64,000 bases of DNA from Tubulanus polymorphus (taxonomy: Eukaryota; Animalia; Nemertea): positions 9,016,850-9,080,849 of the forward strand of contig NC_134029.1 in assembly GCF_964204645.1 (NCBI RefSeq). Direction: 5' to 3'. The notes beneath the pieces were generated by a model, which saw nothing but the letters and a program-made list of their open reading frames with translations, ran no database searches and was not told where the DNA came from. Position numbers and translations under genes: made by a program. This document shows, piece by piece, positions 7,067 to 40,766 of this stretch; the first letter of the stretch is position 1; every line of letters begins with the position of its first letter.

Positions 7067-7072
7067 TATAGA
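7067..7072 (+). repeat. Left 6-bp target-site duplication (TATAGA) of the Polinton
   Basis: TATAGA immediately precedes AGTAATAG at 7073 and recurs at 23254-23259. Confidence 0.95.
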
Positions 7073-7229
7073 AGTAATAGGGATAATGGGCTTTCAAGCC
7101 AAAGGTCGAACGGTCGAGCTCGTAAAAAATGAAAAACATAAAAATAATTACAATTTCTACTTGAATTACTCGCAAAACTCATAAAAATGAAAAATAAATT
7201 CTCACACGCTCGAATTTATTTTTCATTTT
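7073..7229 (+). repeat. Left terminal inverted repeat of the Polinton
   Basis: Reverse complement of 23096-23253. Only one A-run indel and one substitution seen. Confidence 0.93.
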
Positions 7230-7391
7230 TTACTCGCTAAAAAGTAACGAGTAATTAATGAGTTGTTTGAATTGATATTTTAAACATATTTCAATATTCA
7301 TATTTGTATGAGTTAGATTTTTAAACATAAAAGTGTGAGTAAAGTGTGAGTGAAATAATTCATATTTAAAACATTGAATATTTATATTTGA

Positions 7392-8551: not shown

Positions 8552-8579
8552 TCAATTTCAATAAAAATTTGTATAATAA

Positions 8580-8921
8580 ATGGAGAGTAAACAAGTACAC
8601 AGTGAATTCTTAGATAGAATTAAAGATACTTCAAGCGTCAAATCTGTAGATTATAAATTTAAAAAACTAACTGAGTTAACAATTCACAAGAAATATTTAA
8701 TTACTAACATTGAAACAATTACTAATAAATATGGAGATAAATTAGTAATTCATTTAGAATATGAAGGATTAAAAGGAAATAAATATAAATTCAGAACTTA
8801 TTTACCAGATAGATTTCATAGATTATCAAGTGAAGATTTAGAAGAATTATGTTCTGGAGATTTCTATTTCGTATACAAAGGTAAGAATGAAAAAGGGCAC
8901 CATGAAATAGATTTCGAATAA
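8580..8921 (+). CDS. Polinton hypothetical protein, 113 aa (possible OB-fold/ssDNA-binding)
   Basis: Intact ORF with TAAATG start directly after pPolB. The KYG..LV and YLPDRF pattern looks like Polinton-associated small proteins. The fold is a guess. Confidence 0.65.
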   Translation: MESKQVHSEFLDRIKDTSSVKSVDYKFKKLTELTIHKKYLITNIETITNKYGDKLVIHLEYEGLKGNKYKFRTYLPDRFHRLSSEDLEELCSGDFYFVYKGKNEKGHHEIDFE

Positions 8922-8938
8922 GAAAATATGTAAAATAA

Positions 8939-9694
8939 ATGGTGGAATTAAAAGAATACAGAATATTTGTTGATTCTAGAAAACTTACAAATTATAAATC
9001 ACATAATTTATTAGTACAATTAGATAGAGAATTCAAAAATTGTGTTGATTTAAAATTAGTTAATATAAGTTTATGTAATTCTTTTTACAATGTATCGGAT
9101 AAAACTTTTGAACATAGAGGGTTTATGATTTATATGAGAAATAAAGATAAATGGTTTCATATATTTTTAAAACCAGGATTATATAATTTAGAATCATTAG
9201 CGCAGGAAATTAATAGAAGAGCTCGGTTGAAAATCGGGGGCACTTCTGTATTTGAAATTAAATTTAATAAAATTGATAGTACTAATAAAATTAAAATAAA
9301 GGTATCTAATGAACAACATAAATTTATGGTAAACAAACCAATGGCTAAAATGTTAGGAATTAAACCGCTTACAGTTACTGGAAACGCAGAAGGCAGCTCA
9401 AATATAATACCTTTTACACACTTTTATATTTATTGCAATTTAATCGAGCCTACAAAAACTTTCGAAGCAACTAAAGAAACAATTTGTAATTCAAGTATAC
9501 TAAATATTTTACCGCTAAAAAATGTTAAACAATTTGGAACTCAAATAAATTATAATTTAACAGAATGTGATTTTAAACCTTGCATTCCTAAATTTAATAA
9601 TTTTAAATTAGAAATAAGAAATCATAATGGATACTTAATTGATTTGAATAACTTTCCTGTAATTTATGAATTAGTTATAAGATGTAAAGAGTAA
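8939..9694 (+). CDS. Minor capsid protein (penton, single jelly-roll)
   Basis: 251 aa with IFVDS, NSFYNV, LKPGLYNLESLAQEIN, FYIYCNLIE, SSILNILP and LEIRNHNGYLIDLNN..VIYELVIR, the typical Polinton penton pattern. Confidence 0.85.
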   Translation: MVELKEYRIFVDSRKLTNYKSHNLLVQLDREFKNCVDLKLVNISLCNSFYNVSDKTFEHRGFMIYMRNKDKWFHIFLKPGLYNLESLAQEINRRARLKIGGTSVFEIKFNKIDSTNKIKIKVSNEQHKFMVNKPMAKMLGIKPLTVTGNAEGSSNIIPFTHFYIYCNLIEPTKTFEATKETICNSSILNILPLKNVKQFGTQINYNLTECDFKPCIPKFNNFKLEIRNHNGYLIDLNNFPVIYELVIRCKE

Positions 9695-9710
9695 TTTTTC
9701 ACTTATATAA

Positions 9711-9950
9711 ATGAATATAACTGTTGGACCGAGTATATGTTTTGGGTTTGATTTTAAACGTGAGAAAGAAATGAAATTTAACATTAATGATGTAATAACA
9801 CATATCAAAAATATTGCATTTTCTAATGAAACAACATTTGAGTATGAAACAACAATAGATAAAGAAACTTTAAATGTAGAAAAGATTACTGAGTCTTTAA
9901 GATTTTACGAATTAGATGAAGATTTTATCATCGATATATTAAAAAAATAA
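9711..9950 (+). CDS. Polinton hypothetical protein, 79 aa
   Basis: ORF in the co-oriented gene run, with T-tract/TAAATG start. Confidence 0.55.
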   Translation: MNITVGPSICFGFDFKREKEMKFNINDVITHIKNIAFSNETTFEYETTIDKETLNVEKITESLRFYELDEDFIIDILKK

Positions 9951-10057
9951 TAATTGAAATATATGATAATCATAAAACTAGTAATGAAATAAATGTTGAA
10001 TTAATCATAAATAAGATAACTAAATATTTTGATGATAGTAATTTTTTTGATTAATAA

Positions 10058-10279
10058 ATGAGTGATAATAAGTGGATAATAACTGGATTATATAATGGAG
10101 CATTACTATCAGTTGGAACGGTTGGTTATTCAATGGTATTAAAAAAAGTATTCAAAATGGGAAGTGTTAATGTTGATAGATTTGATATAAATGATATTTT
10201 AAAATTAACATTAGCAGTTACTTTATCTAATTTAACAATTGATTATTTGGAAAAACAAAAATATATTCCTCCCATATAA
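10058..10279 (+). CDS. Small hydrophobic/amphipathic protein, 73 aa
   Basis: T-tract/TAAATG start; hydrophobic helices GALLSVGTVGYSMVL and ILKLTLAVTLSNL. Confidence 0.7.
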   Translation: MSDNKWIITGLYNGALLSVGTVGYSMVLKKVFKMGSVNVDRFDINDILKLTLAVTLSNLTIDYLEKQKYIPPI

Positions 10280-10302
10280 ATGCATAATTTTTTGCTAAAT
10301 AA

Positions 10303-10725
10303 ATGGCTTCTGCAATTATAACTATTATAGGATCGGCAATCGTTAACGCTTTAGCATTTACTGGTGGTGGATATTTATTTAAACACATTGATAAAAATAG
10401 TTCATTAGGAGAACAAAGAAGACATAACTTAGCGTTAGAGAAATACAATAAAGCTGCAGAAGAATATAGAGAAAAGAGGCAAAACTATATGGATTACATC
10501 AATAAAGAATTATATGATCAGAAGATTTCACATAGAGATTTTCAATCAGTTGATGATGCAATGAGTTTATATAACGCAGTAACAAATAAAGAAAAATTAC
10601 ATCTATACAAACCTAAATTATCAGATTATTATACCCCAAGTAAAGAACAACAGAAATATGAAATAATTTGGATTTTAGGTGGAACAGTTATTGTTATATT
10701 TGTTGCTTATAAGTTTACTAATTAG
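10303..10725 (+). CDS. Predicted membrane protein, 140 aa
   Basis: N-terminal hydrophobic segment MASAIITIIGSAIVNALAFTGGGYLF, a coiled-coil-like middle and a C-terminal TM (IIWILGGTVIVIFVAY). Confidence 0.8.
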   Translation: MASAIITIIGSAIVNALAFTGGGYLFKHIDKNSSLGEQRRHNLALEKYNKAAEEYREKRQNYMDYINKELYDQKISHRDFQSVDDAMSLYNAVTNKEKLHLYKPKLSDYYTPSKEQQKYEIIWILGGTVIVIFVAYKFTN

Positions 10726-10744
10726 TAATTTTTTTTCTAAATAA

Positions 10745-11179
10745 ATGGAAGATAAAGTTGATAGTATTGATATTATTCCTCATGATATAAATAAAACTAA
10801 ATTAAAAACATATTTAGAAAAACAAATATTAGAATTTGAAAGTGACTTAAAGATAAAAAAGAAAAAATATTTAAAAAGTAAAATTATATATTATCTGATT
10901 ATAAGTGGTTCGGTTACAATTAGTTCTGTAATAACATTTCTAGCAATATTCAGTCCATTAACACCTTTAGCTATATCAATTGGTGTATTAGGATTAAGTT
11001 CAAGTGTTTTAACTGGTATAAGTTCAAAATTAAATATAAAAAGTAATAAAGAAAAAATTAAAACTAATATAAAAGAAATTAATAAATTAAAGAACACACT
11101 AGATTATATAATAAGTTTAAATGGCCATATAACAGTTGAAGAACAAGATAAATTATTAAAAGAATTAATAAATTATTAA
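10745..11179 (+). CDS. Predicted two-TM hairpin membrane protein, 144 aa
   Basis: IIYYLIISGSVTISSVITFLAIFSPLTPLAISIGVLGLSSSVLTGI flanked by Lys-rich coiled segments. Confidence 0.78.
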   Translation: MEDKVDSIDIIPHDINKTKLKTYLEKQILEFESDLKIKKKKYLKSKIIYYLIISGSVTISSVITFLAIFSPLTPLAISIGVLGLSSSVLTGISSKLNIKSNKEKIKTNIKEINKLKNTLDYIISLNGHITVEEQDKLLKELINY

Positions 11180-11195
11180 TTTTTTAATTATATAA

Positions 11196-12584
11196 ATGGT
11201 AGATAGTTTTCCAAAAGCTTTCCAATATAATAAATCAATTAAATATAATATTCCAGCAATAGATTTTAATAAAGATATTACATATAGAAATGAAGTTTTA
11301 GATTCATTAACTAATTTAGAAATTTATGTTACTGAAACTAATAATTTTAATGCAAAGATGGAAAATATATTTCATGTATATTTAATTAATTTTAAAAAAT
11401 TGAAAGATGAAAAACAATGGTTATTAAAATCTAATATGAAGTATTGGCAAAATCAATTAAATTTTGCTGTTTATTGTGCAACAACAGGATGTGGAATTAG
11501 TTGGAATGATCATTTGAATAATTCTAAATATAAATTAATTCAAAGTTTATTTAGATTTCATACATACTTTCAAATCAGAATAATATTAAATGAATTAGAG
11601 TGCGCTTTACCAGGATCTAGATATTTTAAAGAATTAGATAATAATATTAATTTATCAAAGTTTTATAAGATTTGTAATGAATTTAATATAGATATAAATA
11701 ATTCTGATTTTAGAACAAAAACTGGAACAATAAGATCACTTCCTTGCCCTAAAAAGATTGCAGAATATTGTGCACTTCCCATACCATCTAATAGTTTTTA
11801 TAATATCTATAATAAAAAATTAGGTTATGGTAAAATAGAAACAAAGGATTTAGAAACATTAAATTTCAATAAATTACCAAAATTTTATGATAATTTAAAA
11901 CAAGAAAACAATAATGGTTGGGTTTATTTCATTTTAGAAAATAGTGAAGGTTTTACTAAATCAGGTATAGAAAGAATAAATCAATCTATTAGAACTTATT
12001 TGATTTGTATTCTAGGATCACAAGTTGAAACAAGATCACCGATAATTGGAAATTTGAATACATCATTCGATACACAAAAACAATTTAAAGTTTTATTTGA
12101 AGATTCAATTCATAATGATAAAAATAGATCGATTCCAGAAAACATTATAAGATATCAAAATTATTTAGATAAATCTCATGTAAGACTTAATTATTGTATA
12201 GGCCCTAATCTATTAATTATTTCTAATGATTTAGTATTAAAGATGGGAAACATAATTGGTTATAATAATCTAATTAAAACCGCAACAATAAATAATTCAT
12301 TTGGATTGAATGATATAAATAAAAAGATTATTACTGCTCCAAAATTAATGGAAGGTGAAAAAAATAAAAAACACATTCAATCAACTGAAACTAAAACTAA
12401 GAATATTAAATTAAATAATGATTCTAAAATAAAAGATTATAATACATCAGAAGATATAAAAACTGATAAAATTCAACATGATATAATTAAACTAAATGAT
12501 GATAATAAATCCCATGAAAATACTAAATTAGCTATAACTTGTATAGGAATTGTAATCGGAGGAATATTATATTTTAAATTTTAA
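11196..12584 (+). CDS. Uncharacterised 462-aa protein with C-terminal membrane anchor
   Basis: Long intact ORF with YWQNQLNFAVYCATTGCGIS and FRFHTYFQIR blocks; terminal TM LAITCIGIVIGGILYF. Confidence 0.82.
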   Translation: MVDSFPKAFQYNKSIKYNIPAIDFNKDITYRNEVLDSLTNLEIYVTETNNFNAKMENIFHVYLINFKKLKDEKQWLLKSNMKYWQNQLNFAVYCATTGCGISWNDHLNNSKYKLIQSLFRFHTYFQIRIILNELECALPGSRYFKELDNNINLSKFYKICNEFNIDINNSDFRTKTGTIRSLPCPKKIAEYCALPIPSNSFYNIYNKKLGYGKIETKDLETLNFNKLPKFYDNLKQENNNGWVYFILENSEGFTKSGIERINQSIRTYLICILGSQVETRSPIIGNLNTSFDTQKQFKVLFEDSIHNDKNRSIPENIIRYQNYLDKSHVRLNYCIGPNLLIISNDLVLKMGNIIGYNNLIKTATINNSFGLNDINKKIITAPKLMEGEKNKKHIQSTETKTKNIKLNNDSKIKDYNTSEDIKTDKIQHDIIKLNDDNKSHENTKLAITCIGIVIGGILYFKF

Positions 12585-12600
12585 TTTTTTTATTATGTAA

Positions 12601-14330
12601 ATGGCAGAAGGTGTAGAAGATATTCCATTTGATGACATGGGAAATAATAATGAAGGATATATTGATGATGATTATAATGATACAGAAACTAATATTGATA
12701 ATGATGATGAATCAGCATATAATACTAATTTAGGTGAAGATGATGATTATGATGATGATGATCCCGAATTACGTGAAAGATTAAATAAATATTTAAAAGC
12801 TCCTGAAATTGGTAGAATTTCAACTAGAAGAGAAAGAAAAGAATTTATGGAACTATTAGTAAAACAACAAGAAAAAAATCCTGATAAACCTATGGAATTA
12901 TCTAAAATGAAATCTAGAGTAACAGATACAATTGTTAACGAATTATTACCAACAGTTGTAATAGATGAAATTGATTCAGAAGGTGTTGTAGAACAAATTT
13001 TTAAAGATGACCCATATTTCACAAATAATTTAGAATTTAAAAATGATTCGTGGTATTATAATGTTAATTTAAATAACAAAATTGTATCAATTCAATTATC
13101 TAAAATGGGTCAAGAAAATATTTATGAACCTGAAATGCGAGCAACATCTACAATTGAAGGTTCAAAAGGTGGTAGAGAATTTCTTAGAATTATATGGAAT
13201 GCACTCGATAGAATAAATAAAAAAGAACCAATTCCTAATATTGATATAAACAAATATTCACCATTTAAAAATCCATTTAAAAATCCAAATCCTACTGATT
13301 TTGATCCAGAAATGGAAGAGAATAGAAATCGATTAGATAGATTGAGATCTTCAACACCCGAAACATCGAGAAGAGACACTCAACCAATTGATAATTATTC
13401 AAGTCAATTACAATTAGAAAAACAAATTGATAGATTAAGAGATTCAGAAGAACTGATGAATAGTATATCAGATACATCTGGTTCTGAAACTGGAATAAAT
13501 CGACTGCAATATTTACTAGAAAAAGGATTTCTTAATTTAACTGATGAAGAATTAGAAGCATTTCCTGAACAAATACGTAGAGAAATTAAAGGTATACAAG
13601 TATCAGCTGATGAAATTGCTAATATTAAGATGAGATTTTCTAAAATAACCATGTTAGAAAAAGAATTAGTTAATGTAGATGAAGAATTAAAACAATTAGA
13701 ATTAAATAGAGATCATCAAGTAGTTTATGAAGCTGATTATGAAAGCAGAAAGTTAGCTTTAGTAAAAGAAATAGATGATTTAGAATATAACAAAATATTA
13801 TATATATATATATAAAATTACAAAAAGAAGAAAGAGATATATTATTAAAATCATATGATCTTAATCATATTAAAAAATTAAAAGTTATTTTTAAAGATTT
13901 GTTGATTAAACCAGATTCTGAAATATCATTAAAAGACAGAATAAGATTATTATTTAAATTAGAAGGTATAACAATTCTTTCAATTGTAACAGCTGTAACT
14001 ATGGTATTTACAACAATTGGTTTAGCAATATCAAATGCTTTGAAATCTACTCCTACTCCCACTCCCAATAAACCGGATAAACCTCCAGGTAATAATTCTA
14101 TACAAGATAAAGTTAAGGATGGTTTAAAGAAATTAGCAAAATATTTATGGGAACTATCAAAGAAATCTGCTGCAGCTTTACCAGGAGTTATTGCTTCAAT
14201 TGTTGGTTTTATATTGAAATCTGCAGGAAACATTATTAACTTTGCTGCTGAACATATTATTTTATTTTTAATTACAGTTGTAAGTGCTATTATTTTTGGG
14301 TTAGTGAATATGATATCAAAAAATAAATAA
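12601..14330 (+). pseudogene. Large acidic/coiled-coil multi-TM protein (~575 aa), frameshifted at a (TA)n run
   Basis: ORF 12601-13815 ends inside the TA run at ~13799-13814, and the 13899-14330 frame is open back through that run. Removing one TA joins them. TMs: GITILSIVTAVTMVFTTIGLAI and IILFLITVVSAIIFGLV. Confidence 0.8.
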
Positions 14331-14352
14331 TTAATTTTTTTTTGTTAAATAA

Positions 14353-15600
14353 ATGAGTGGGAGTTATATAAGTCCTTCGAAGAATCATAGAATATCTAAT
14401 GCTATTAAAGCAGAAAGATCACATCATATAATTACTCATAACCCTTCAAATATTAATCCCGATGAAACTTTATATGTTAGAATTCCTAGATTAACACAAA
14501 ATACTTTTTATGTTCCAAATAGTATTTATTTATCAGCTCATATAAAAGTAATCGGTAATAATAATAATTATGTTGTTGATAATGTTGGAAGATATTTGAT
14601 TAAAAAGTTAACAATAAAGATTGGTCCGGAAACGGTTTTCTCATTAGATGATTATAATTTATTTATGCATTATAAAGATTTATGGTTAACTAAAGAAAAT
14701 AGAAATAATATGATATTTCAGGGTATTCAATCAGAAAACCAAAATAAATTAAGATCAGAAGCTAATAGCGCAATATTAACTAATGATGTAGATAAATTGA
14801 TAAAAAGTATATATGGAAGTAAATATAAAATTCCATTAGACTTTGAATTGATAAATAATAATGCACCTTTATATAAATACGCAATTCAAGAAGACGTTAT
14901 ATTTGAAATAACATTTGCTCCTGTAAATGAAATTGTATTATCTAGCGTTGTTAAAGATATGAGTTATAAATTATCGAATATATGTTTAGAATATGATACA
15001 GTAACTGATGAAAATATTTCAAGTATAATTCAAACCCAATATAATCAAGGATTTTCATTATTATATGATTATATTGATAAATTTAAAACTGTAACTATTA
15101 ATGCAAATGATGAAATAATTAATGAGAATATTAACTTTCCTAGAAGATCTATTAAAGGTATATTAATATTTTTTACCATTGGAACGTATACTAATGGTGC
15201 AATAAATGTTGACAATTATTATAATCCTGAAATAACAAAAGTAGAAATAACTATCGAAGGAATAGCAAATAAAATATTTTGTCAAGGAATGAGAATGATT
15301 CTTCAATGGCCAGAAATTAGAAAACATTTTATGAATGAAAAAATAAAATCATCTGAAGATTGTAACATTAATCAAATTGATTATTATACCGGTAATAAAT
15401 ATGCATTATGGTTAGATTTTAGAACAACTGAAGATAATTCATTACATGGTTCTGGGAAAAAACTACAAAATACAAAAGATGGAATACAATTATTCATGAC
15501 AAAGAAAAAGGGAATCAAAAATTTTAAAATGCACATTTATATTATATCTGACGCGCAATTAAATATTGTAAATTCTCAATTAGATAGTGTTATGTATTAA
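14353..15600 (+). CDS. Major capsid protein (double jelly-roll)
   Basis: 415-aa beta-rich ORF with NPSNINPDETLYVRIP, LIKKLTIKIG, YKIPLDF, YKLSNICLEYD, RSIKGILIFF and YALWLDFR blocks. Size and pattern match Polinton/PLV MCPs. Confidence 0.85.
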   Translation: MSGSYISPSKNHRISNAIKAERSHHIITHNPSNINPDETLYVRIPRLTQNTFYVPNSIYLSAHIKVIGNNNNYVVDNVGRYLIKKLTIKIGPETVFSLDDYNLFMHYKDLWLTKENRNNMIFQGIQSENQNKLRSEANSAILTNDVDKLIKSIYGSKYKIPLDFELINNNAPLYKYAIQEDVIFEITFAPVNEIVLSSVVKDMSYKLSNICLEYDTVTDENISSIIQTQYNQGFSLLYDYIDKFKTVTINANDEIINENINFPRRSIKGILIFFTIGTYTNGAINVDNYYNPEITKVEITIEGIANKIFCQGMRMILQWPEIRKHFMNEKIKSSEDCNINQIDYYTGNKYALWLDFRTTEDNSLHGSGKKLQNTKDGIQLFMTKKKGIKNFKMHIYIISDAQLNIVNSQLDSVMY

Positions 15601-15632
15601 AATTTTAACTTTAATAAAAATATATATAATAA

Positions 15633-16880
15633 ATGGAAGGTGGAATATATGAAATACAATCTCCAAGTGAAATGATATCAGATATATATTATATATTACC
15701 TTATGATGAATACAGTAAGTATTTTGGAGATTACTTTAATCAATTCAAATATAGAATAAGTAAAATAGATAAGAATATTGAAACTAAAATAGAAGATAAT
15801 ATTGAACCTAAAATAGAAGATAAGAATGAAACTAAAATAGAAGATAAGAATGATATTGAATATAAAATAGAAGATAATATTGAACCTAAAATAGAAGATA
15901 AGAATGATATTGAATATAAAATAGAAGATAAGAATGATATTGAATATAAAATAGAAGATGTAACAGGATATGTATCTTATAATATACCCTCTACAACATA
16001 TGATATTGAATCAAAAAAGATAAATGAAAAATATTGTGACGTATGTAAACAGTATAAAAGTTATAAGAATTGGGCAACTCATCTTAATTCACTCAAGCAT
16101 AAGAAAAATAAGAATAAGATTTTAAATGAATTGAATAATGATAGTGAAATTGATAATGATAATGTTAAAGAAGATAAATATTGTGAAGAATGTGATAAAT
16201 ATATAAGTCGTAGTAATTTTTCAAAGCATAAATTAACACAGATACATTTGGATAATATAGAAAGAAATATATGTGAAAAGTGTAATGTTGTTGTATTACC
16301 TAAAGATAGAATTAAACATGATAATTCTTTTGAACATACAATAAAAGCTGCTGATTTAAATATCCTTTATAGAGTACCAAGTGTATTTTTTGATATCGAA
16401 AATAATGATCATAGGAAATTATATAGATCAATTTTTATCGATTATGTAAGAAATAATCCAAAACAAGTATTATCAGATCTAAAAACTCGTCGGATGATTA
16501 TAAAAATTGATCTAAATAATTATTGGGGTATATATTATTTCATAAAATTTAAAAATATAGATTTTTTAACAGAATTGAAAAAAGTTGCTGCTAATGATAA
16601 TTATGATAATAAAAGTGATAACTTTGATGAAATAATTCAATACTACAGTTATGAAGATTTTTCACAGGATGTTATAAATAAAATAAGAAATGAAGCAAAA
16701 AATAAATATAAAAATATAAGTGGAGACAAATTAAACCAATATATTTATTTAACTTATGAATTCTGGGTTAAGGGTTTGAATGGTAATGGTTATCATTTTA
16801 AACTATTAGGTGAAAGAAGATCAGAAGAATTAAGAGATGCATGGAGCAAATTGTTTTCAGAATTAGAATCAGAAAAGTAA
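15633..16880 (+). CDS. Triple C2H2 (U1/matrin-like) zinc-finger protein with internal KIEDKN repeats, 415 aa
   Basis: Fingers CDVC..H..H, CEEC..H..H and CEKC..H..H; tandem 21-27-nt coding repeats at ~15760-15960. Confidence 0.78.
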   Translation: MEGGIYEIQSPSEMISDIYYILPYDEYSKYFGDYFNQFKYRISKIDKNIETKIEDNIEPKIEDKNETKIEDKNDIEYKIEDNIEPKIEDKNDIEYKIEDKNDIEYKIEDVTGYVSYNIPSTTYDIESKKINEKYCDVCKQYKSYKNWATHLNSLKHKKNKNKILNELNNDSEIDNDNVKEDKYCEECDKYISRSNFSKHKLTQIHLDNIERNICEKCNVVVLPKDRIKHDNSFEHTIKAADLNILYRVPSVFFDIENNDHRKLYRSIFIDYVRNNPKQVLSDLKTRRMIIKIDLNNYWGIYYFIKFKNIDFLTELKKVAANDNYDNKSDNFDEIIQYYSYEDFSQDVINKIRNEAKNKYKNISGDKLNQYIYLTYEFWVKGLNGNGYHFKLLGERRSEELRDAWSKLFSELESEK

Positions 16881-16907
16881 TTTAAAATATGAATATAATA
16901 CCCTTTG

Positions 16908-17472
16908 TGTCTTTATTGTCTTTAGTAGTTTAGTACTTTTAGTACATAAAGAATAAATCTTTATTTTATTAGTAGTGAATAAAATTATTTTTAAAACTAC
17001 TAAACTACTAAAGACAATAAAGACATAAATATATATATAACACTGTTTCAATAATTATATTTATTCATCTGATGGATTTTATATATTACTGTTTCAATAA
17101 TTAAATCTATTTATCACACATATTTATTATATATATCATAGATTTATCATTTATAAAAATTATTTATATATTTTATTTTTCTAAGTACTAATTAAATAAA
17201 GATTTATTCTTTATGTACTAAAAGTACTAAAAGTACTAAAGATAATAAAGACATAACAAAACATATATAGATGTAATAAATATCATAGATTTATTTATCT
17301 CACATATTTATTATATATATTTGATTCAGTAATGATAAATCTATGTGTGTTTGTTATGTCTTTATTATCTTTAGTAGTTTAGTAGTTCTATTTTATTTTA
17401 TTCACTACTAATAAAATAAAGATTTATTCTTTATGTACTAAAAGTACTAAACTACTAAAGATAATAAAGACA
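16908..17472. repeat. Nested inverted repeats between the convergent gene blocks
   Basis: Unit 16908-17025 has 28-bp self-complementary arms (TGTCTTTATTGTCTTTAGTAGTTTAGTA). 17357-17472 is an inverted copy of the whole unit, and a partial copy lies at ~17194-17260. Confidence 0.85.
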
Positions 17473-17530
17473 TTAGGGGAGGTATATAATACATATCTAA
17501 TACATATCTAATACATAGGTATACAAATAG

Positions 17531-18145
17531 TTATTTTATAAATTTATATTCATATGGAAATTGTAATCTCATAAGTAATTTGGAACCTTTATTATTCTTT
17601 AATTTATTCATATATTCATCATGTAATTCAGTAGGTATAATTTGATTTTCTTCTAATGATTGTTGCATAGATTTTCTATCTTTGTTGTAGAATAAAACTA
17701 GAAATCTTATATTCTCTCTAAAGTCTTTCACAATTGAATTATATTTCTGATTTAAAACCCATGTTGTTATCCCAAAATGTCTACCAGAGAAAGCTAAATA
17801 ACATAACTCACTTTCTCTAATTTTAGAATCATGTACATTTGCGCAATCATCAATAATAAATAATGTATTAGATCCTTTATAAATATCTAATGCAATTTTT
17901 ATACAATTATCTAAATTATCTTTTACTGTTTTAGAATTTAATATAATAAACTTTTTATCTTTAAAAACTATATCTCTATTATACGTTTCATTCATTTCAT
18001 AAGTTGGGCAGAATAATATTATATTATCAAAATGATTCTGATAAATAGTTTCTAATAAATCTAATATGAAGTGTGTTTTACTACAATTTGTAACTCCAGT
18101 AACTAACATATTATGTGGTTCAAATATAAACAAATCTTTATTCAT
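17531..18145 (-). CDS. FtsK/HerA (A32-like) genome-packaging ATPase with Walker A variant GVTNCSKT
   Basis: hhhhGxxxxSKT, Walker B LFIIDD, and SGRHFGITTWVLNQ (GRH...Q motif). Confidence 0.9.
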   Translation of the reverse strand: MNKDLFIFEPHNMLVTGVTNCSKTHFILDLLETIYQNHFDNIILFCPTYEMNETYNRDIVFKDKKFIILNSKTVKDNLDNCIKIALDIYKGSNTLFIIDDCANVHDSKIRESELCYLAFSGRHFGITTWVLNQKYNSIVKDFRENIRFLVLFYNKDRKSMQQSLEENQIIPTELHDEYMNKLKNNKGSKLLMRLQFPYEYKFIK

Positions 18146-19223
18146 TTATTCTTTTAATTTTACTAGATAAAATCCATTCATTAAATTTATCATCTTATCC
18201 TTTATATTTCACCAAAGAATACTTTTTTCCTTTAAGAGTTTTAGTTTTCAATACCTTTTCTATTTTGTATTCTATTTCATCTGGATTTGGTACTAATGAT
18301 AATTCTTGTTCATAAAAATAACCTAATATTTCTTCATCTTTTAAATCAAACAATTTATAAACAAATGGTTTAGTTAATATTATCTTTTTAATTTTAAATA
18401 TTTCTTCTGTAAAATTAGGGGTATAACCTTTATAAAATGTTTTTCGATATTTAGAAATTCTAACATGTTGTCCTATTTTGAATTTAGGTTCTCCGAAATC
18501 ATGTGTAACAAATGCACCATATAAATTATTCCAAACTATTTCTGAATTTTCTTCTTTTCTAGCTTGTATAGGTTTCATATTTATAGAACTATGTTTAGAA
18601 TTATTATAACCTTTAACTAAATCATCTAATACATCGATATATTTATATGTTTCATTAGCGGTGAAATATTTCCACATTCTAGTTTTCAATGTTTTATTAA
18701 ATCTTTCTATAACAGATGCTTTTTTATCTGAATGTGTTGAAAAATATTCTACATCGTTATCAGTTAATAGTTTTTTAAAATGTTTGTTATAAAATTCTTT
18801 ACCTTCATCAAATTGTATTTTATCTGGGATAGCTTCTTTAAATATTAATTTGAAAGAATTTGTAACTTCTATACCAGTTTTATTTTTAATCGGGATACTC
18901 CATGCGTATCTACTGAATATATCTATAACATTTAGTATCCAAAAATATCCTTTGTTATATTCTTCTAAGTTTTTCATATCAATTAAATCAGCTTGCCATT
19001 GTTGGTCAATATATGAAACCATTACTTTTCTTGTTAAATATTTTTTATCCATTTTCTTGTGGATTTGATATGTTGGTTGATTTTGTAACCATGATTTTAA
19101 TTCACTTTATTTTATATTACTATTATCAGATTTAATTTTATCCCATAATTCTGAAACGTTAGAATATGATACTTCACTTTCTGGGTTGTAATATAACGCT
19201 CTTAAATATTGTTCTTTTTTCAT
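18138..19223 (-). pseudogene. int: Retroviral-type (rve) integrase with C-terminal chromodomain and two in-frame TAA stops
   Basis: Frame reads MKKEQYLRALYYNP...NIK*SELKSWLQ...WQADLIDM...IDIFSRYAW...FDEGKEF...IERFNKTLK...YKIEKVL..KYKG*DDKFNEW. Stops are at 19107-19109 and 18195-18197. Confidence 0.93.
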
Positions 19224-19229
19224 CTTATT

Positions 19230-19655
19230 TTAATCCATTAATAATAATCTTGGTTTATTTTCAATGACTTTATCATTTGACTTATTTTCTGGTATGATAG
19301 GTTTACTGTCTGTACACGGATAACTAAGTTTCCGATTGTCATTGGAATCATCTTTATCGTAAGATTTGAATTTTGATTTATATATTACACCGGATAATAT
19401 AATAACTGTTACTAATCCAATTGTAATATATAATTTATAATTACTTCCAGCATTAGAAGAATTAGATGGATTATCATTTGAATCAATACCACCGTGTGGG
19501 TGCTGTACGGCACCATCAGATAAAGTCTGTGATTCATTTATATCAGTTAATTTCTTTTTCTTAGCTTTTTTTAATTCTGATGATCTTTTACCTAATTCTC
19601 TTGCCCATTTAATTTGTTTCTCGGATCTAGCCTTTTTCTTAACTCCATCACTCAT
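19230..19655 (-). CDS. Single-TM protein with basic N-terminus, 141 aa
   Basis: TAAATG start, Lys/Arg-rich head, TM LYITIGLVTVIILSGVIY. Confidence 0.75.
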   Translation of the reverse strand: MSDGVKKKARSEKQIKWARELGKRSSELKKAKKKKLTDINESQTLSDGAVQHPHGGIDSNDNPSNSSNAGSNYKLYITIGLVTVIILSGVIYKSKFKSYDKDDSNDNRKLSYPCTDSKPIIPENKSNDKVIENKPRLLLMD

Positions 19656-19664
19656 TTATTTTAG

Positions 19665-20231
19665 TTAATTTTGTTCTGATTCATTTTCTGTTTCACTGTT
19701 TGGTTGTAGTACATCTGTTTCGTTCTTACCTGATTTATATTCCATAGGTTTGATGTTCGAAAATGTAATGACACCAGTAGAAATTAATGTCATAACCGAT
19801 CCTAATTGAAATGAAGCATAACCGACCCATTTTTGTAATTCAGTCATAACTAAATAGTCATTTTTCAAATCATTATATAATTTATTTTCATCATCAATTG
19901 GTATTAACTGGTTACATAATTTTGAATAACATTTGACAATACCATCTGAAATAGAATCATTTATTCTAGCTAATCGAGCTTCTTCATAAATCTTAAAATA
20001 TTTTATTACTTTATCGGGTTTCATAGCATCTAATTCTTGAAAAGTAATAGTCTTAGTTAAAAACTCTTTAGTTTTTCCACCGGCAATCAATAGTTCTATA
20101 TGGTGCTTACAATATAAATAGTATTCATAATCTATAGAATTAGAAACAACTGTATCTTTATTATCACTAATACCTAAATCATCTAATGTCTTTTCAATAT
20201 CAATATTATTCTTACTCAATTTCTTTGACAT
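19665..20231 (-). CDS. Polinton hypothetical protein with a hydrophobic C-proximal segment, 188 aa
   Basis: T-tract/TAAATG start; segment WVGYASFQLGSVMTLISTGVITF. Confidence 0.75.
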   Translation of the reverse strand: MSKKLSKNNIDIEKTLDDLGISDNKDTVVSNSIDYEYYLYCKHHIELLIAGGKTKEFLTKTITFQELDAMKPDKVIKYFKIYEEARLARINDSISDGIVKCYSKLCNQLIPIDDENKLYNDLKNDYLVMTELQKWVGYASFQLGSVMTLISTGVITFSNIKPMEYKSGKNETDVLQPNSETENESEQN

Positions 20232-20645
20232 TTATATTAGAGGAAAAAAGCAAAAAAAATATTATAAGTATTCTTCAAATGATACTAGTATCTCTTTAGG
20301 TTAATACTAAATTGACTAGGTTAGTTAAAGTTAAAGAATTTCTATTCAAATCTATTCAAAATCTATTCAATCTAATGTCAATTAGAATTACCAAAAGAAA
20401 ATATTGAAAAATATAATAGAATTCACTAGCTAGTTGAAGTTATTGTTTTTTTATTATATTTTATTTAAATTAGGATTTAGATTATCTCACTACTATTGTC
20501 TATCTATTAGGAGCAGTAATTATAACTGTCCAGATAAGTCATTTCGGATCCTCGATAATAAATCCTCAAACTGAAAATAAATTCAAAGAAACGACTGGTG
20601 GAAATCTTATTTCATAAACACATATATTTATTATACAAATTTTAG

Positions 20646-21006
20646 CGATCAATAGTAGAACAATGGAGAACAATAGAAATGCGGTTCAATCGGACCGGTT
20701 ATTGCGCAATACACAGTTATATTCTTATTCTGTAAACTACAACATTCAAACATAGAAATGTAACCAATCAATATTGAGCAGCTGTTTCAGTCAACAACGA
20801 TCAATAATAGAACAATGGAGAACAATAGAAATGCGGTCCAATAGGACCGGTTATTGCGCAATACACAGTTAACAGTAAACAATACAATACAGAACAACCG
20901 CCGCCATTAACAACGATCAATAATAGAACAATGGAGAACAATAGAAATGCGGTTCAATAGGACCGGTTATTGCGCAATATTTAGTTAACAGTAAACAATA
21001 CAATAT
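20646..21006. repeat. Three direct repeats (~75-100 bp) in the non-coding region, putative enhancer
   Basis: CGATCAATARTAGAACAATGGAGAACAATAGAAATGCGGT...GGACCGGTTATTGCGCAATA at 20646, 20798 and 20914. Confidence 0.85.
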
Positions 21007-21075
21007 TAAAACAGATATATACAATCGAGATTACATTTTTGATATCTATATTACAAAGACCTTCAGTGTTATAAT

Positions 21076-21542
21076 TTATAATTTTGTCCAGAATTCTTTA
21101 ATTACTGGATTGTTTCCAATCATTTCTTCAATTTCTGGTAAATATCTGACTACTTCACTAAATGCTAATCCTAATATTTTGAATTTTTCATATTTTATTA
21201 ATCTACCTACTCTTCTCAGTTTTCTTTCAAAACCGGCATTGATATCTCCACTCATTTTCTTAGTTTTCGATTATTTGAGTCCCAACAGCAATTTAAGTCG
21301 CGTTGCTGGTAATTTTGGTAATTGTAGTTCGCGCGGTAATTGTTTATTATGTATTACATCACTCAGAATTTTCACCATTTCTTGATGATAGTCCAAATGT
21401 TCTTATAATTTTGTGAAGTTTGTTCGTCAATTACGAGAGTTTCATCCTCCATTTCTATTGATTCCTGTGTTTCACTATCCAGTAGCAATCGTTCCTCATC
21501 CGTTGGTTGGCTTAGAATTTCTGGTTGATCTTTGTGTTCCAT
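21076..21542 (-). pseudogene. Disrupted Polinton ORF (frameshift and nonsense codons)
   Basis: MEHKDQPEILSQ... from 21542 shifts into a frame ..HQEMVKILSD..LGLK*SKTKKMSG..KEFWTKL*. Confidence 0.45.
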
Positions 21543-21869
21543 TTTAATCTAAAAGATATCGTGAAAATGAATTACTGTACTTAAATATGTTTAAAGGTTT
21601 CCCTACTTCATAATAACTACAAAAAACGGTACTTACATTTAGATTTAGAACTGTAAACTGTGTTTTGAGAGAGAATATCCAATACGTACTATGTATGTGA
21701 AAGTTGATTTCTAACTGCCGACGTGGCGCACGTTCAACCAAACTAATTATTTCTGCACAGATGTTCTTTATGATGAAGTTAATTAATTCTTTAGAATTGA
21801 AAACAAGATATATTTGGCAACATATGTTTTAGTAGTAAGCAAAAGCTATGTATTATATACATACAAAGC

Positions 21870-22574
21870 TCAAATAGAATTGCCAGCTTTCTTACCACTG
21901 ATCAAAACCTCAGAATGCGGTTGATTCTGTGAAATACTATTCCATAATTCAACAAATGTCTTTGCTTTATCCAGTTGATCTAAATATAACTGTAAATCTA
22001 GTTTATTGGATTTAATAATGTTTTCCTTCTTTTCTAAAGGTCTTAGATTCTTCCAATTCCAAATAAGTTTTTTATTGTATTCATCATTCATGTTAAATTT
22101 AGATATTGGTAACACATGATCAATATGAAAGTATTCACCATAATTATCTATATTCATTTTATCATCGAATTGATATATTATCCATGATTTTAAGAATTCA
22201 TCTGAACAACCCAATAAATTAGATAGTGTTTTTGAACGCGTTTCTTTGTTGAATAATTTTGATACTTTAGATCTCAAACATTGTTTCATTTTAAAATTAA
22301 AATCTGTTTGATATCTTTCTTTATGATAATTTCTATTATACACTTTAATATGTTCTAAATGATTTTCTTTCCATTGCTTATTTTCATCTTTGCGTGTTTC
22401 GGTATTATTTCTATAATTTTGTTTGTCACTTAGTTTACTACAAGTTTTACAATAACTTTGCTTACCATCTTTCTGAGTTTTATAATTATAATATTCCGAG
22501 AGTTGTTTATTTATTTTACATTTAGAACATTTCTTATTGTTTATATTTATAGCTTGTGATTGTTCCGGCTCCAT
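21870..22574 (-). CDS. HNH endonuclease with N-terminal C4 zinc ribbon (giant-virus/phage type)
   Basis: KCSKC..CKTC, LLGCS..FLKSWI..QF, NYGEYFHIDHVLP and NWKNLRPL..KENIIKSNK. Confidence 0.85.
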   Translation of the reverse strand: MEPEQSQAININNKKCSKCKINKQLSEYYNYKTQKDGKQSYCKTCSKLSDKQNYRNNTETRKDENKQWKENHLEHIKVYNRNYHKERYQTDFNFKMKQCLRSKVSKLFNKETRSKTLSNLLGCSDEFLKSWIIYQFDDKMNIDNYGEYFHIDHVLPISKFNMNDEYNKKLIWNWKNLRPLEKKENIIKSNKLDLQLYLDQLDKAKTFVELWNSISQNQPHSEVLISGKKAGNSI

Positions 22575-22651
22575 TTATTATACATATTTTTATTAAAATT
22601 GATTAACATTTTAGAATCCTCTTCCATTTCTTCGACCAACGTCATCCTTTT

Positions 22652-22903
22652 TCATTCCTCGCTGCTTTTGATAAGTTGTTTCGATTCCTTGATATCAAAT
22701 TCCTCAACGTATTGTTCATTATTTGGATCAGTGTTCCATAATTCAATAAATTTCTTTCCTTTTGTTAACTGTTCTGAATATAACTGTAAATATTCTAATT
22801 TCAATTTATTCTCTAAATGTGTTTTAGTTTTATTGTGTCTTGCTTTTTGAGACTTATCTATATTTATCTTACATGTTGGACAGTAGTACTTATTTGCTTC
22901 CAT
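22652..22903 (-). CDS. Small C2H2 zinc-finger protein, 83 aa
   Basis: YCPTCKINIDKSQKARHNKTKTH; preceded by the same upstream motif as 22574, 8580 and 15633. Confidence 0.7.
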   Translation of the reverse strand: MEANKYYCPTCKINIDKSQKARHNKTKTHLENKLKLEYLQLYSEQLTKGKKFIELWNTDPNNEQYVEEFDIKESKQLIKSSEE

Positions 22904-22985
22904 TTTAATACTAAATTTTTTATTAAAATTGATTTTAGAAGTTCAATGATTTAAATGTTATTCATATATATATGAATATTTTAAG

Positions 22986-23253
22986 AGTAATAGGGATAAT
23001 GGGCTTTCAAGCTAAAGGTTGAACGGGCGGGTGAGTAAAAATGAAAAAACATAAAAATAATAACAATTTCTACTTGAATTAGGAGTGAAACTCATAAAAT
23101 GAAAAATAAATTCGAGCGTGTGAGAATTTATTTTTCATTTTTATGAGTTTTGCGAGTAATTCAAGTAGAAATTGTTATTATTTTTATGTTTTTTCATTTT
23201 TTACGAGCTCGACCGTTCGACCTTTGGCTTGAAAGCCCATTATCCCTATTACT
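22986..23253. repeat. 268-bp imperfect terminal palindrome that includes the right TIR (23096-23253)
   Basis: 22986 restarts AGTAATAGGGATAATGGGCTTTCAAG. The arms fold around the loop GAGCGTGTGA at ~23114-23123. Confidence 0.92.
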
Positions 23254-23259
23254 TATAGA
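23254..23259 (+). repeat. Right 6-bp target-site duplication (TATAGA)
   Basis: Follows ...CCCTATTACT and is identical to 7067-7072. Confidence 0.95.
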
Positions 23260-25470
23260 CCATCACTGTATCAAAACTACAATTTTACGGTACAATACTC
23301 CATCCATGCAGTCGCAATGGTCCAGTTAGTAAGAGCACAAGACTTGCACCTAGTAGATCAGAAGTTTGAGTCTCGGGTTGCTATAGTTCCCGGTCTATAC
23401 GACTGCAGGTTATCAAAGTTCATTTGATCTCCACGGGCATGGGCATATACCACATAATTCTTAAAATGATAATTTCTAAATGGTATTTTTGAATGAATCA
23501 AAAAGTTTGAAGTTTTGGCCTAAGAAAATGACCAGTGGTTTCCACGGGTATTACTCAAGTATACAAAAGTATTGCTTATTAGCGCACCTTCAATGTCCGA
23601 AGAAAATGTTTGGTTCGCAAGATTAATCGAATTAAAACAAAAACAAAAGTAAAAAGCCATAAACGTCATATGGGTGCAGTGCAGCATGGGGTTCGCATCT
23701 CCTGACCGTCGGTATTAAGACTCCATAACAAATAATTAATGTGAAATAACCCACGTGCAGAACAGTCGCATTTGTTTTTGATTTACCTTTTAGATATTTG
23801 CCTGTGGACATGATATCATCCGCGATATGGTTGATTGATTGGTTGAGACCACACGAATGTTACTTGAAATAGTGTTTTTTTCGGCATCAAGAAACCTCGT
23901 TCGTTTCTACGCTGAGTCGCTAATTAACACTCCATCTATATTGCATCTATACGATCGCTAAACGCAACGCTCTTCAGTGTTTGAAATGTCCCGCAAATCA
24001 GACAATTGAACGCATTTGGTGCAGAAACTTTGACCAGCCGAAATTATAACCATAAATTCTTGTGTTTAGACGTACACGCACACCTCATTCATTCGCGAGC
24101 CACAGACCGGACAAGAGCTCTCGAAGTTTTATTCCTGGACACAAGCGGGCATACGGTAATAGTTTATGCTGTTAATAATTGCGTGCAATTTAAAACTAAA
24201 GTTATATAAACTATTGGAAATTTCTAAAGAAATTATCAGGTAATTCAAAAGATGCTATAGTAGTCTCTAATTTTGAATTGAAATTTAATATGTTTAGATA
24301 CATTATTTGGATTTGGGAAACACCGAGGTAACCATCGACACAGGGTGTATCTTTAAAGTATCCAAAGGCCCTTTATACTTGAAAGGCCCTTTAAATCAAC
24401 AAGTTCATTAATTCCAAATATATTTCCTGTCTCGTACATGTCATCTCCCCATGACGCTTCCGTAGGTATATAACTTATGATGACGCAAGGCCAGTATACG
24501 TAATTCTCACTCCCCGTTGTGCAGACAATACAGCAATATAATAGATATGGGAAATCCCGGGACCTCCCAGGCGAAAACATACCGTAGGGATGCATCAAGT
24601 ACCCTCAATTAAACATGGAAACAATCAAACTGTGGCTGTTATCGGAAAAAAAATCCTTTAAACTTTGAAAATTGCCGTGACAAATAGCTTTGCCCGTGCA
24701 TGCAAATAATGTGACGCTCAACCACTCGCGCGCGCTTTGCGCTTATTTCAACCGGTGGCCGCACGCGTTACTATGAGGATACTTTTATTATTGCAATATC
24801 AACAAACTCCTCGAATAGATTTCTATCTTTAGTGAAAGTTTTAAATCATGAAATAGTTACGACAAGCGACACAAAATTGCTATTTTGGGGGGCGCTTTCC
24901 TAAAAGTTACGTATTCTTTTAATCGAAGATATTATGTCAGGACTACGTAATTCCAATTTCCAAGTTTTTAAGAAAAGTGTTCGTTCGCGGCAAAATGTCC
25001 GCCTCAATGTACCACATATCGGGACAAAGAGGTCAGGCTAAAGCTTGCCTTGTTTCATTCTTCGTGGATTTCCTCCGTGGACAGGAAACCCCGAAACCTT
25101 GATTTTGTGATCCTCAATTAGACATCAATCCGACGTGATCGTTGCGAAGTTTGAACCGCAATAAAAAACCTCTTTGTTGTTGATATGAATTCAATCGGTA
25201 AAATATTTACTGATATCTGATAACGATAAAAAATTCTTTGAAATGAATAAAGCTGGCGCTGAAATATAGTTACTTGGAATAATCGGTAAAGCAATGAAGT
25301 GGTTTCAATGTAATGAAAAATATTAGTCGAATGTTAAACCGATTTTGTGAATCATCATGGTACAATGGGCCAACATTGTACCTTTTACCAAACACTAACC
25401 GCACCCCTGACAAGGTTAGAAAGTTGTGCAACACAATGAAAATTAAACTATTACTTACTATGATATATGG

Positions 25471-25825: not shown

Positions 25826-28800
25826 ATGAAAACCTTCCTATTGACAGGTTTTTTGGCAGCTCACATATTCTCACCAGTTTTGGCGTCAGCGAAACGACAG
25901 CTAAACGGAGAGAATGACGTGAGCCTTACAAACGATATTCCCACTCCCAATCCCGCAGTAGCGTATATTAGAGATTATATGACAGCTGAATACCGAAAGA
26001 CCCTGCGAGATGATATGAAGAATTGTAAGGGTAAAGAAAGCACTTTCGATTCGGCGGCTGTAGTCAGCAATGTTCCGCAGTGTTCTATCGTTGGCACGTG
26101 AGTTTCATTTCTAATAAATCCTCTCCGAAAAACTCAAAAATTATTTCATATATATCATATAAGCATGTTTATAGAATAGACACAAGTATACTTGTATTTA
26201 TCAGTGCTATGTAACCACTTTTTTGCAGAGATATTCTACGCAAGAACGGATCCGCAGTAGATGCTTTTATCGCTACAGCCGTTTGTCTGGGTACGATAAA
26301 TTCTCAATCCAGTGGTATCGGTGGAGGATTCTTCATGACTTACTACAAAAAGTAATCAAATATAAGGGTGATGGTAGGGAAGATCAGTAGCTTTTTCTTT
26401 CGTTGTAGATACGTAAGCTAATCACAAGTACTAAACCCCAGCTGTGCATCGGTTTAGTAATGTGTCATTGTGTCCGAAAATTTACAAACAATGAAATGCA
26501 CGTTCGTTCCCTTTTCTTCGTTAAATAATAAATCGTTTATATCTAGCAAAGATTTTCAAAGCTTCTTAACTAATGTACATAACTATTAGAAAAAGCCGGA
26601 ACCAAGCCCTACATTCGTGTACACATATTCAGAATGCAATGACTGCAATACATGTATGCATAAATTTCATTATCAACAGCATCACTTAGTAATTCATTCT
26701 ATAAATTAGCCTAGAATTATTGTCGTTTCAGAAGTGAGAAAAGGTCCTATGCTCTCGATGCATTTTCTGTAGCGCCTAACGCCCCCTCGCAGGACTTCTA
26801 CGTTGAGCATGCGAATTCATCATGGTCCGGTATGTTTCTCTGTGACCCTAAAATAGAAATCTCTGTGGTGTACGCTGTGGCGTTTGGACTGCGAATATTT
26901 CACCGAGCTGAGATGACCGAATACGGAGTTGATAAATTGAGAAAATGAGCGTTTCTGCTTTCTAAGTTGTTTAAGTTTTTGCCGGTATAGGTGGTCTATC
27001 AATTGCTGTACCCGGTGAGGTTGCTGGCTACTGGAAGGCGCACCAAGCATTCGGCCGTTTGACATGGGTGGAGCTGTTCGAACCGTCAATCAAATTGTGC
27101 GAGTCTGGGTATGCCTTGACTCCAGCTAACTACATGGCACTTCTACTCCTACGCGTGTATGACACTCTCGATCCAATCTCTCGGTAAGTTTGTTTCAGCT
27201 TGGATCTTGAATGCGAGTTCCATGTTCCAGTTGTAATATCAATTATGACCCACTCTTCTCCAAATGTTTTTCTCAAAAACCAGATTTGATGGGCCCTCAA
27301 AATGTTTGATTGCATTCAAATGAAATGCACTTAGATGCTTGCATATTCGGCATCTGTCTATATAACACTTAATTTGCATTTTACTGCAAATTTCGTCAAC
27401 TTCGAAAACAGCCTTAGGTAAATTACCAGATGATATTGTAAATGTGTCCGCTATTTTCAGGTCTATATTTATCGACCCCAAGACCGGTGATCTTTATAAA
27501 GCCGGTGAAATAATTAAAAGGCCAACCTACTGTAAAACGCTGAAAGAAATTGCCGAGCAAGGGGCAGCTACATTCTACACTGGTTCGTTGTCGAAGAAAA
27601 TTCTTGAAGACCTTTACGAACAGTGTACGTAAGTTAGTTAGGCATTGTTTTCATTATTTCTGCGAAATTCGACGTGATGGCCCACTTAGTTTTAGTTTTT
27701 GATCCACGGATCAAAGCAGATTTTTGTTTCCGGTTACCATAAAAGTTAGAATTAAAGTTTATCACTGCACAAAAAATGACAAAATGACAATGACAAAAAT
27801 GCCCAAACTTGGCCGCCCAAAAACGTCCGACCAGGCCCGAGCCGAATTCTAGCACGAGACAAATGATTGCGTTTGAATTGCAACTGGTTCAGGAAATGAC
27901 CCACTTCGCTTTATTTAAGCATTGTTATCGAGTAAATGGTTCGCGTGTGAACGCGCTCTCTAATTAGGCGCGGGCCAAATTTGGCTCGAGTCTGATCCGG
28001 GCCAAATCGTCTCCGAGTGATCGCGGCTAAAGTGAAACCGAATGTCAGTTAGTCGGGACTCTGGTCCAGAGATGGTCGACTATGAGATTCAGCGCGGTCG
28101 CTGTCTACTCGGAAGCCGACACTGTGTAAGACGTTACAACCGAACTAAGTGCATTCAGTTATTAGTTCCGACCACAAGTTGACTAACGACGAAAAACCGA
28201 AGTTCGCCAAGGCCGCCGGCATTTATGTTGAAAAATCTTTTGTCATATGTCATTTTTCAGTCATATTTTACAAAATCAGTGAGTGTACTTGAGATGATAC
28301 CTATGGTGGCTGATTCGGGCCATACTAAAAAATTTTTCTGTACGGCTCCAGCAACGATAAAAAAATTTTCGCATTGGCCCATTTTTGGTTTTCTCGCGAG
28401 AAAATTCAAAACATTTTGGTTTTCTCGCGCGAGAATTCAGAAATTTTGGTTTTCTCGCGCAAAAATTCAAAAAGTTTTGAATGCTCGCGCGAGAATTCAA
28501 AACTTTTGGTTTCATCGCGCGAGAAAACTAAAACTAAACATTTTGGTTTGAAAAATTTTTCTGACTGGCTAGAAGCTGGATAAAAATTTTTTACAATGGC
28601 CCATTTTTTTGTTTTATCGCGCGAGAATTCAAAACTTTTGAATTCTCCCGCGAGAAAACCAAACTTTTTGAATTCTCGCGCGAGAAAACCAAAATGTTTT
28701 GTTTTCTCACGCGAGAAAACCAAAAGTTTTGAATTCTCGCGTGAGAAAACCAAACTTTTTGAATTCTCGCGCGAGAAAACCAAAAAACGGGCCAATGTGG

Positions 28801-33939: not shown

Positions 33940-40766
<6,827 letters not shown>

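Follow-up and report, generated by a model that had tools for sequence, protein, structure and literature searches.

To our knowledge, neither the excision nor the replication of a Polinton has ever been observed, and the racket model of Kapitonov and Jurka is reportedly a proposal made from sequence alone. The element described here shares with Polintons/Mavericks the terminal inverted repeats (TIRs), a 6-bp target-site duplication, AGT...ACT ends, an integrase, an ATPase, a double jelly-roll capsid protein and, in relatives, a polymerase (excerpts of PMC8097293), but it differs from them in carrying an extra internal copy of its end at one terminus only, which produces a flush fold-back. The terms 'hairpin' and 'palindrom' have 0 occurrences in a vertebrate Maverick survey, and 'hairpin' has 0 in a nematode survey.

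Terminal palindromes have been described in Halocafeteria virophages and PLV subtype 4, for which hairpin priming was proposed (excerpts of bioRxiv 10.64898/2026.07.28.741278). The likeness lies in a palindrome adjoining the target duplication of an integrated Polinton-related element; those palindromes are placed inside the TIRs, measure 52 nt in the example given, are found mainly with non-pPolB elements, and in the same excerpts are reported with no conserved mismatches, covariation or one-ended layout. The left-end hairpin of the parvoviruses MVM and LuIII contains a mismatched bubble, which renders the two arms of the dimer bridge unequal, and a single orientation is reported; in MVM, a GA/GAA mismatch leaves only one arm an active origin (excerpts of PMC1185569). 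Parvoviruses differ in possessing the NS1 nickase and packaging ssDNA, whereas the present element integrates with a target duplication. The geometry of its hairpin would allow second-strand priming of the parvoviral 3'-hairpin kind. Streptomyces telomeres (Tap/Tpg), which are primed by a terminal protein, also form 3' single-strand fold-backs with sheared G-A pairs (excerpts of PMC5449611). Theirs, however, are short palindromes, several at each end and with GNA loops, combined with internal origins; our hairpin is a single long stem, confined to one end, whose tandem GA steps are internal. Poxvirus telomeres are likewise AT-rich, incompletely paired terminal hairpins whose mismatches matter (excerpts of PMC8956199). 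They are covalently closed, with extrahelical loops and flip and flop forms at both ends, in contrast to the single end, one dominant orientation and purine-rich appositions found here.

The window analysed in this study, a stretch of 64,000 nucleotides of Tubulanus polymorphus DNA, contains a 16.2-kb Polinton/Maverick at 7073-23253, and its right end, 22986-23253, consists of an inner arm, a tip and an outer arm. The element is a low-GC island (20-31% GC vs about 35-42% in the surroundings) bounded by a 6-bp target-site duplication, and it ends in AGTAAT...ATTACT, a motif of the AG...CT type that differs by one base from the Polinton end motif (AGT)2 (excerpts of PMC8097293). The features outside the right end are as follows.

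7067-7072, no strand: left copy of the target-site duplication TATAGA, from terminus comparison
7073-7230, + strand: left TIR, made up of outer arm, tip and 19 bp, with the full inner arm absent; identity to the reverse complement of 23096-23253 is 98.7% (157/158 bp)
7183-7230, - strand: small hairpin within the left TIR, with a 19-bp stem and the same tip as the right end
8042-8551, + strand: remnant of a protein-primed DNA polymerase, last 169 codons only, by homology to the protein of metagenome locus L004
14353-15600, + strand: double jelly-roll capsid protein (Foldseek E 2.6e-16, TM 0.63 to the PBCV-1 capsid)
17531-18145, - strand: A32-type packaging ATPase (PF04665, E 5e-11)
18195-19052, - strand: rve integrase, ORF of 285 aa (PF00665, above cut-off)
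21870-22574, - strand: HNH/endonuclease VII-like ORF near the right end (phrog_1035, E 3.8e-18)

The element is a non-autonomous member of the class because its polymerase has been cut down to this remnant, which is 82% identical to residues 1073-1241 of the intact 1241-aa protein of L004. From its motifs and gene context we take the latter to be a protein-primed PolB; Pfam and PDB sequence searches left it unnamed. An Endonuclease_7 match slightly below the Pfam cut-off lies inside this polymerase; HNH insertions are known in Polinton polymerases (excerpts of 10.1101/2023.08.22.554363), and such insertions have been put down to intein invasions (excerpts of PMC11071308). The structure model of the capsid protein reached a pLDDT of 80. 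The integrase is short compared with the 357-371 aa of most of its closest relatives, several of which have a chromodomain. Among the 19 ORFs scanned with Pfam, no protease (the maturation protease may be deleted or too diverged) and no nickase of the Rep/HUH/NS1 families was matched. The long ORFs close to the right end lie on the - strand, and the endonuclease VII-like ORF sits about 400 bp inward of the hairpin.

The right end, 22986-23253, is a 268-base imperfect palindrome with the following parts.

22986-23113, + strand: inner arm, 128 nt, an internal, directly oriented copy of the element end that begins at the terminal AGT
23114-23123, + strand: tip, 10 nt, a tandem G-A/A-G followed by a 2-pair mini-stem and a 2-nt loop
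23124-23253, + strand: outer arm, 130 nt, ending in the terminal ACT; the TIR proper is 23096-23253
23254-23259, no strand: right copy of the target-site duplication TATAGA

The two arms share 116 identities, with 12 mismatches and two 1-base indels, and the 3' end of the + strand pairs flush with the internal copy of the terminus, the first 27 pairs being perfect. The initial annotation had described a full imperfect palindrome on the right and one arm, the loop and about 19 bp on the left, and both coordinates and letters agree with it. Folding, which that annotation had proposed as a check, gave stable structures on both strands and a stronger one on the + strand: as ssDNA, -112.3 kcal/mol (z -25.6) for the + strand and -102.2 kcal/mol (z -22.6) for the - strand, with 0/200 shuffled controls folding equally well, and as RNA, -171.9 vs -147.2 kcal/mol. 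A panhandle between the left and right ends is predicted to be more stable (-148 kcal/mol) than the fold-back of the outer arm (-115 kcal/mol).

All 12 arm mismatches on the + strand are G-T, G-A or G-G (binomial p 0.0005), with 0 of the C-type (C-A, C-T or C-C), whereas the - strand hairpin carries C-A, C-T and C-C mismatches. The principal sites are listed below.

23013-23020, + strand: T-G wobbles at 23013/23226 and 23020/23219, both without a listed variant in the reads
23027-23034 with partners 23205-23212, + strand: bubble 1, comprising G-A, G-T and T-G, then a tandem G-A/A-G at 23033-34/23205-06
23082-23087 with partners 23151-23156, + strand: bubble 2, comprising G-G, a tandem G-A/A-G, T-G and G-T

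One tandem 5'GA/3'AG step is formed by each of the two bubbles and by the outermost two bases on either side of the 'loop', giving three in the hairpin; bubbles and loop base alike are tandem G-A appositions with G-T or G-C pairs on their flanks, not open loops. Tandem GA-AG in DNA shows very strong sheared stacking (excerpts of PMC8163305). The clustered differences annotated earlier (inner GGTTGAA vs outer GGTCGAA, inner GGGTGA vs outer GAGCTC) were confirmed to the letter, and bubble 2 was absent from that list. When decay was simulated with 12 random substitutions, all mismatches were G-type in 2/100,000 runs and at least two tandem GA steps arose in 1/100,000. Symmetric CpG decay was rejected, as it would yield A-C as often as G-T. 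The conserved mismatches, G-T and tandem G-A, bias the structure towards a folded + strand. In the small hairpin of the left TIR, the G-A form of the tip falls on the - strand. YGAG motifs show a strand bias near the ends, with 6 vs 2 for the hairpin and 5 vs 1 for 7231-7391, compared with 28 vs 34 in the body.

A second, diverged terminus occurs elsewhere in the window.

40207-40350, + strand: stranded right end, from a short-arm and diverged member of the family

The arms of this relic measure 68/66 nt and fold at -38.6 kcal/mol (z -11.3). It had been annotated as sharing the wobble, the bubble differences and a matching 10-nt tip, and each was recovered: the T-G of GGTTGAA/GGTCGAA at 40241/40317, bubble 1 at 40253-55/40303-05 and the tip at 40275-40284, so that two tandem GA steps (bubble 1 and tip) are kept. 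Of its 13 arm mismatches, 8 are G-type, 0 C-type and 5 A-A or T-T, the pair map being approximate near its two indels. The upstream flank is AT-rich and resembles the subterminal region of the element. Because no target-site duplication surrounds 40207-40350, we interpret the relic as an isolated right end, not as a free mini-element. A free MITE (144-268 bp) was likewise rejected, there being no target-site duplication around either 22986-23253 or the relic.

Other copies were studied in one raw-read DNA run (X5), of which about 12% was read and in which variants are unphased. Depth was 6-7 in the flank and 3,100-4,300 over the outer arm, and 1,860 reads were clipped at 23253 with little agreement among the clipped sequences; these values correspond to roughly 460-710 termini at different sites, provided that the flank is single-copy. 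Depth fell to 0.4 at 23266-23270, as the sample lacks the window insertion, which suggests recent activity of the element. An assembly artefact was rejected, since the same end layout is present in the raw reads of this sample. The interior depth beside the inner arm, 1,839, was 0.43-0.60 of the outer-arm depth, and the depth of the inner core was 0.30 of its partner's; these ratios are compatible with an inner arm at roughly every second end, although reference bias lowers the inner depth.

Forty of the 124 differences in the reads were listed; 34 entries (33 positions) lie in the hairpin, and four upstream and two flank entries were dropped. The lowest share of a listed variant was 22%, and the remaining sites presumably vary less. 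Seven compensatory pairs were found among the listed sites (15 inner, 16 outer), against a mean of 1.14 and a maximum of 6 in 20,000 permutations; both sides changed to a new Watson-Crick pair at 22996/23243, 23001/23238, 23010/23229, 23012/23227, 23024/23215, 23050/23188 and 23053/23185. No variant is listed for ten of the 15 non-Watson-Crick appositions, among them the tandem GA steps in bubble 1 and the tip; the other five all vary into Watson-Crick pairs. The inner arm is present in other copies, and the mismatch positions are non-random across copies. These results agree with the earlier claim that the bubbles are selected structure and not decay, as do the exclusively G-type mismatches and the decay simulations. 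We hold with high confidence that the hairpin is a selected structure, a well-supported conclusion.

The copies are not uniform. Both arms occur in versions that lack 57-60 nt, a relic-like short form. In 347 reads, tip-trimmed variants lack 23088-23151, and the stem ends with the bubble 2 GA step as its tip. A further 326 reads exit the inner arm at 23023 into an outer-arm-like continuation without the bubble 1 step, which may represent a subfamily without bubble 1, misplaced left ends or an inverted form. Because of these 326 reads and because the A-G of bubble 2 is lost in 25% of reads, the GA steps are not universal among copies. Pairing is broken by variants at 23061, 23071 and 23073 and by two shifted triplets, unless their partners are among the 84 unlisted entries. 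The read variants may reflect a few subfamilies. Further inward, depth over part of the nuclease ORF (22355-22507) dropped about tenfold, to 42-85 vs 700-850 nearby, and 80 reads skip 22592-22925 (region 22591-22926); the subterminal genes vary among copies, and the nuclease ORF is not uniformly kept in the family.

The right-end palindrome is likely a working single-strand fold-back, and its role would most probably lie in starting DNA copying. A single + strand with a 3' fold-back is indicated by the flush register, the strand bias and the covariation. The reading we put forward, at slightly under even confidence, is that the single + strand primes its own copying through the fold-back, while the mismatches identify the outer arm as the genuine end. 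Duplex DNA would in this way be made from a single + strand that had been excised or displaced. Excision, or strand displacement starting at the left end, would render the + strand single-stranded; the local fold-back would then form ahead of the 16-kb panhandle and present a paired 3'-OH with template before it. Extension would yield a duplex with a hairpin end; once the hairpin itself was copied through, the arms would lie side by side in a dimer bridge. Differences between inner and outer arm could then let an integrase, polymerase or nuclease accept only the outer arm as an end, so that one orientation would be regenerated, the left TIR would be a copy of the outer arm and the 268-bp unit would not be mobile alone. 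The mismatches would thus meet two constraints, differing at recognition sites and costing little + strand pairing energy. Candidates for the hairpin-opening nuclease are the endonuclease VII-like ORF and the Endonuclease_7 match inside the L004 polymerase. Asymmetric handling of the dimer bridge is favoured by analogy with the MVM left end, and self-priming combined with such handling would account for a left TIR of the outer type. Several observations count against the fold-back primer: the protein-primed-type polymerase in L004 would make a hairpin primer needless, the terminal palindromes of virophages and PLVs accompany mainly non-pPolB elements, and the GA steps are not universal among the copies read, whose variants are unphased and come from a single run. 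The fold-back would also have to win on speed, because the panhandle is more stable.

The same structural evidence would serve a different, rather doubtful reading by analogy, in which a local panhandle rebuilds a duplex origin for terminal-protein priming by the polymerase of the element itself and templates repair of a shortened 3' end, with no full-length priming. The intact polymerase in L004 suits this reading, as do the Streptomyces 3' overhangs with sheared G-A pairs and repair by fold-back extension (excerpts of PMC5449611); under it, no flop form is expected and no dimer has to be resolved. Against it, a polymerase could act directly on a 3'-OH that is paired and has template before it, and further extension would presumably need blocking; a true, more stable panhandle is available, and the requirement for one end only is left unexplained. 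That one-ended layout, together with the YGAG strand bias at the ends and the endonuclease VII-like ORF close by, would suit a packaging or excision signal, with a cruciform or oriented duplex sites read by the ATPase, the integrase or the endonuclease VII-like protein and marking the first-handled end; the mismatches of the vaccinia hairpin serve virion assembly, not DNA synthesis (excerpts of PMC8956199). We regard such a signal as improbable, since a cruciform involves both strands and yet the - strand hairpin contains C-A, C-T and C-C, since duplex binding sites need no compensatory pairing, and since the read depth collapses over part of the nuclease ORF.

It is also quite improbable that the hairpin is a functionless by-product of fold-back template switching in a few master copies, which would have created and homogenised the arm, combined with deamination of the exposed + strand as the source of the G-T bias. 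Changes of C>T and A>G on one strand yield exactly G-T appositions, copying from one arm to the other would pass for compensatory change, all seven pairs could stem from a few subfamilies, and some outer-arm reads may have been placed on the inner arm. Homogenisation would, however, erase mismatches, whereas the tandem GA steps persist in the relic and across the reads; G-A appositions require transversions and are not a deamination product; and inner-arm alleles are supported by 237-951 reads each, with only 113/8,874 reads fitting two places. Selection for an RNA hairpin from the + strand, such as a Dicer decoy or a terminator, is highly improbable. The stronger + strand RNA fold speaks for it, G-U pairs and tandem GA being common in RNA, but the arm ends exactly at the DNA terminus, the long right-end ORFs lie on the - strand, and Rfam returned only generic miRNA precursors far below gathering scores.

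The fold-back primer predicts hairpin-closed or palindromic junctions at 22985/23253. No strand-switch joint at 22985/23253, dimer bridge or hairpin joint was found among 15 of 82 joints listed, the weakest with 16 reads, and the X5 reads showed neither a pile-up of molecule ends nor free molecules, although host DNA need not hold replicating forms. An inner T>C at 23013 or 23020 was likewise absent from the 40 listed differences. Fewer than 319 reads were clipped before 22986, against the 1,860 behind 23253. One orientation therefore dominates; an equimolar flip/flop is excluded, and an inverted form lies below about 20%. The initial annotation had called for a search for flip/flop forms, and equal forms were not seen in the raw reads. 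Its comparison with poxvirus and parvovirus telomeres stands as regards the incompletely paired terminal hairpin, but not as regards equimolar flip/flop or a Rep/HUH nickase.

Retained by hundreds of copies, a one-ended, strand-favouring fold-back argues for a single-stranded intermediate and identifies its strand (+) and its end (right), and the tandem G-A steps are a concrete candidate recognition feature. A hybrid replication route in an animal Polinton lineage would combine protein priming on the left with parvovirus-like self-priming on the right through a single-stranded + genome with a tandem G-A asymmetry code; we consider it speculative and rather unlikely. If true, the tandem G-A steps would make the dimer bridge resolve in one orientation only, and the route would link Polintons with ssDNA viruses that use protein-primed polymerases.

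The pattern of the shared outer-arm core had 0 matches in viral contigs and 0 in metagenome contigs; 16 prokaryote-genome matches had no inverted repeat over the match and were rejected as chance. Protein-guided scans of viral contigs gave no locus, and searches for the hairpin in relatives gave short AT-rich matches at most, among 80 of 104 confirmed metagenome loci. No terminus was present at the one contig end examined in each of L004 and L005. Terminal palindromes are already published for protist virophages and PLVs; in Creative Commons PMC papers and bioRxiv we came across no fold-back that is one-ended, flush with the terminus and punctuated by conserved tandem G-A steps.

Several other features of the element and its relatives were recorded. 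A short extra inverted repeat (7229-7254) lies just inside the left TIR, and 7229-7391 contains five GAGT/YGAG motifs on the + strand, with a core identical to the GA steps; these may serve as binding sites or as a promoter for the left gene block. A 116-nt non-coding repeat occurs three times at 20610-20993, between a 188-aa ORF and the nuclease ORF. AT-rich repeats and hairpins occupy 16990-17475, where two gene blocks converge, and palindromes recur at the corresponding position in relatives L001-L003 and L005, possibly as transcription-end signals. In L004 (337-7154), the intact polymerase is immediately followed by a nuclease, two small ORFs and an integrase, all on one strand; this gene order differs from that of the window element, and L005 differs again. 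Close capsid and integrase homologues deposited as Bartonella proteins (P0046, P0128-P0135, P0151, P0240) come from short contigs, 0.5-1.6 kb where given, and are probably host DNA contaminating those assemblies.

Around the relic, a 61-66-nt tandem repeat occupies 39620-40040 just upstream, and an exon of a neurotransmitter-gated (Cys-loop) ion channel lies at 38549-38776 on the - strand (PF02931, E 5.6e-15); at about 1.4 kb from this exon, the relic may be intronic. Elsewhere in the window, host repeats include a 30-31-nt tandem array (28381-28785), a long AT dinucleotide-type tract (37952-38449) and a GTTAA microsatellite (43639-43753).
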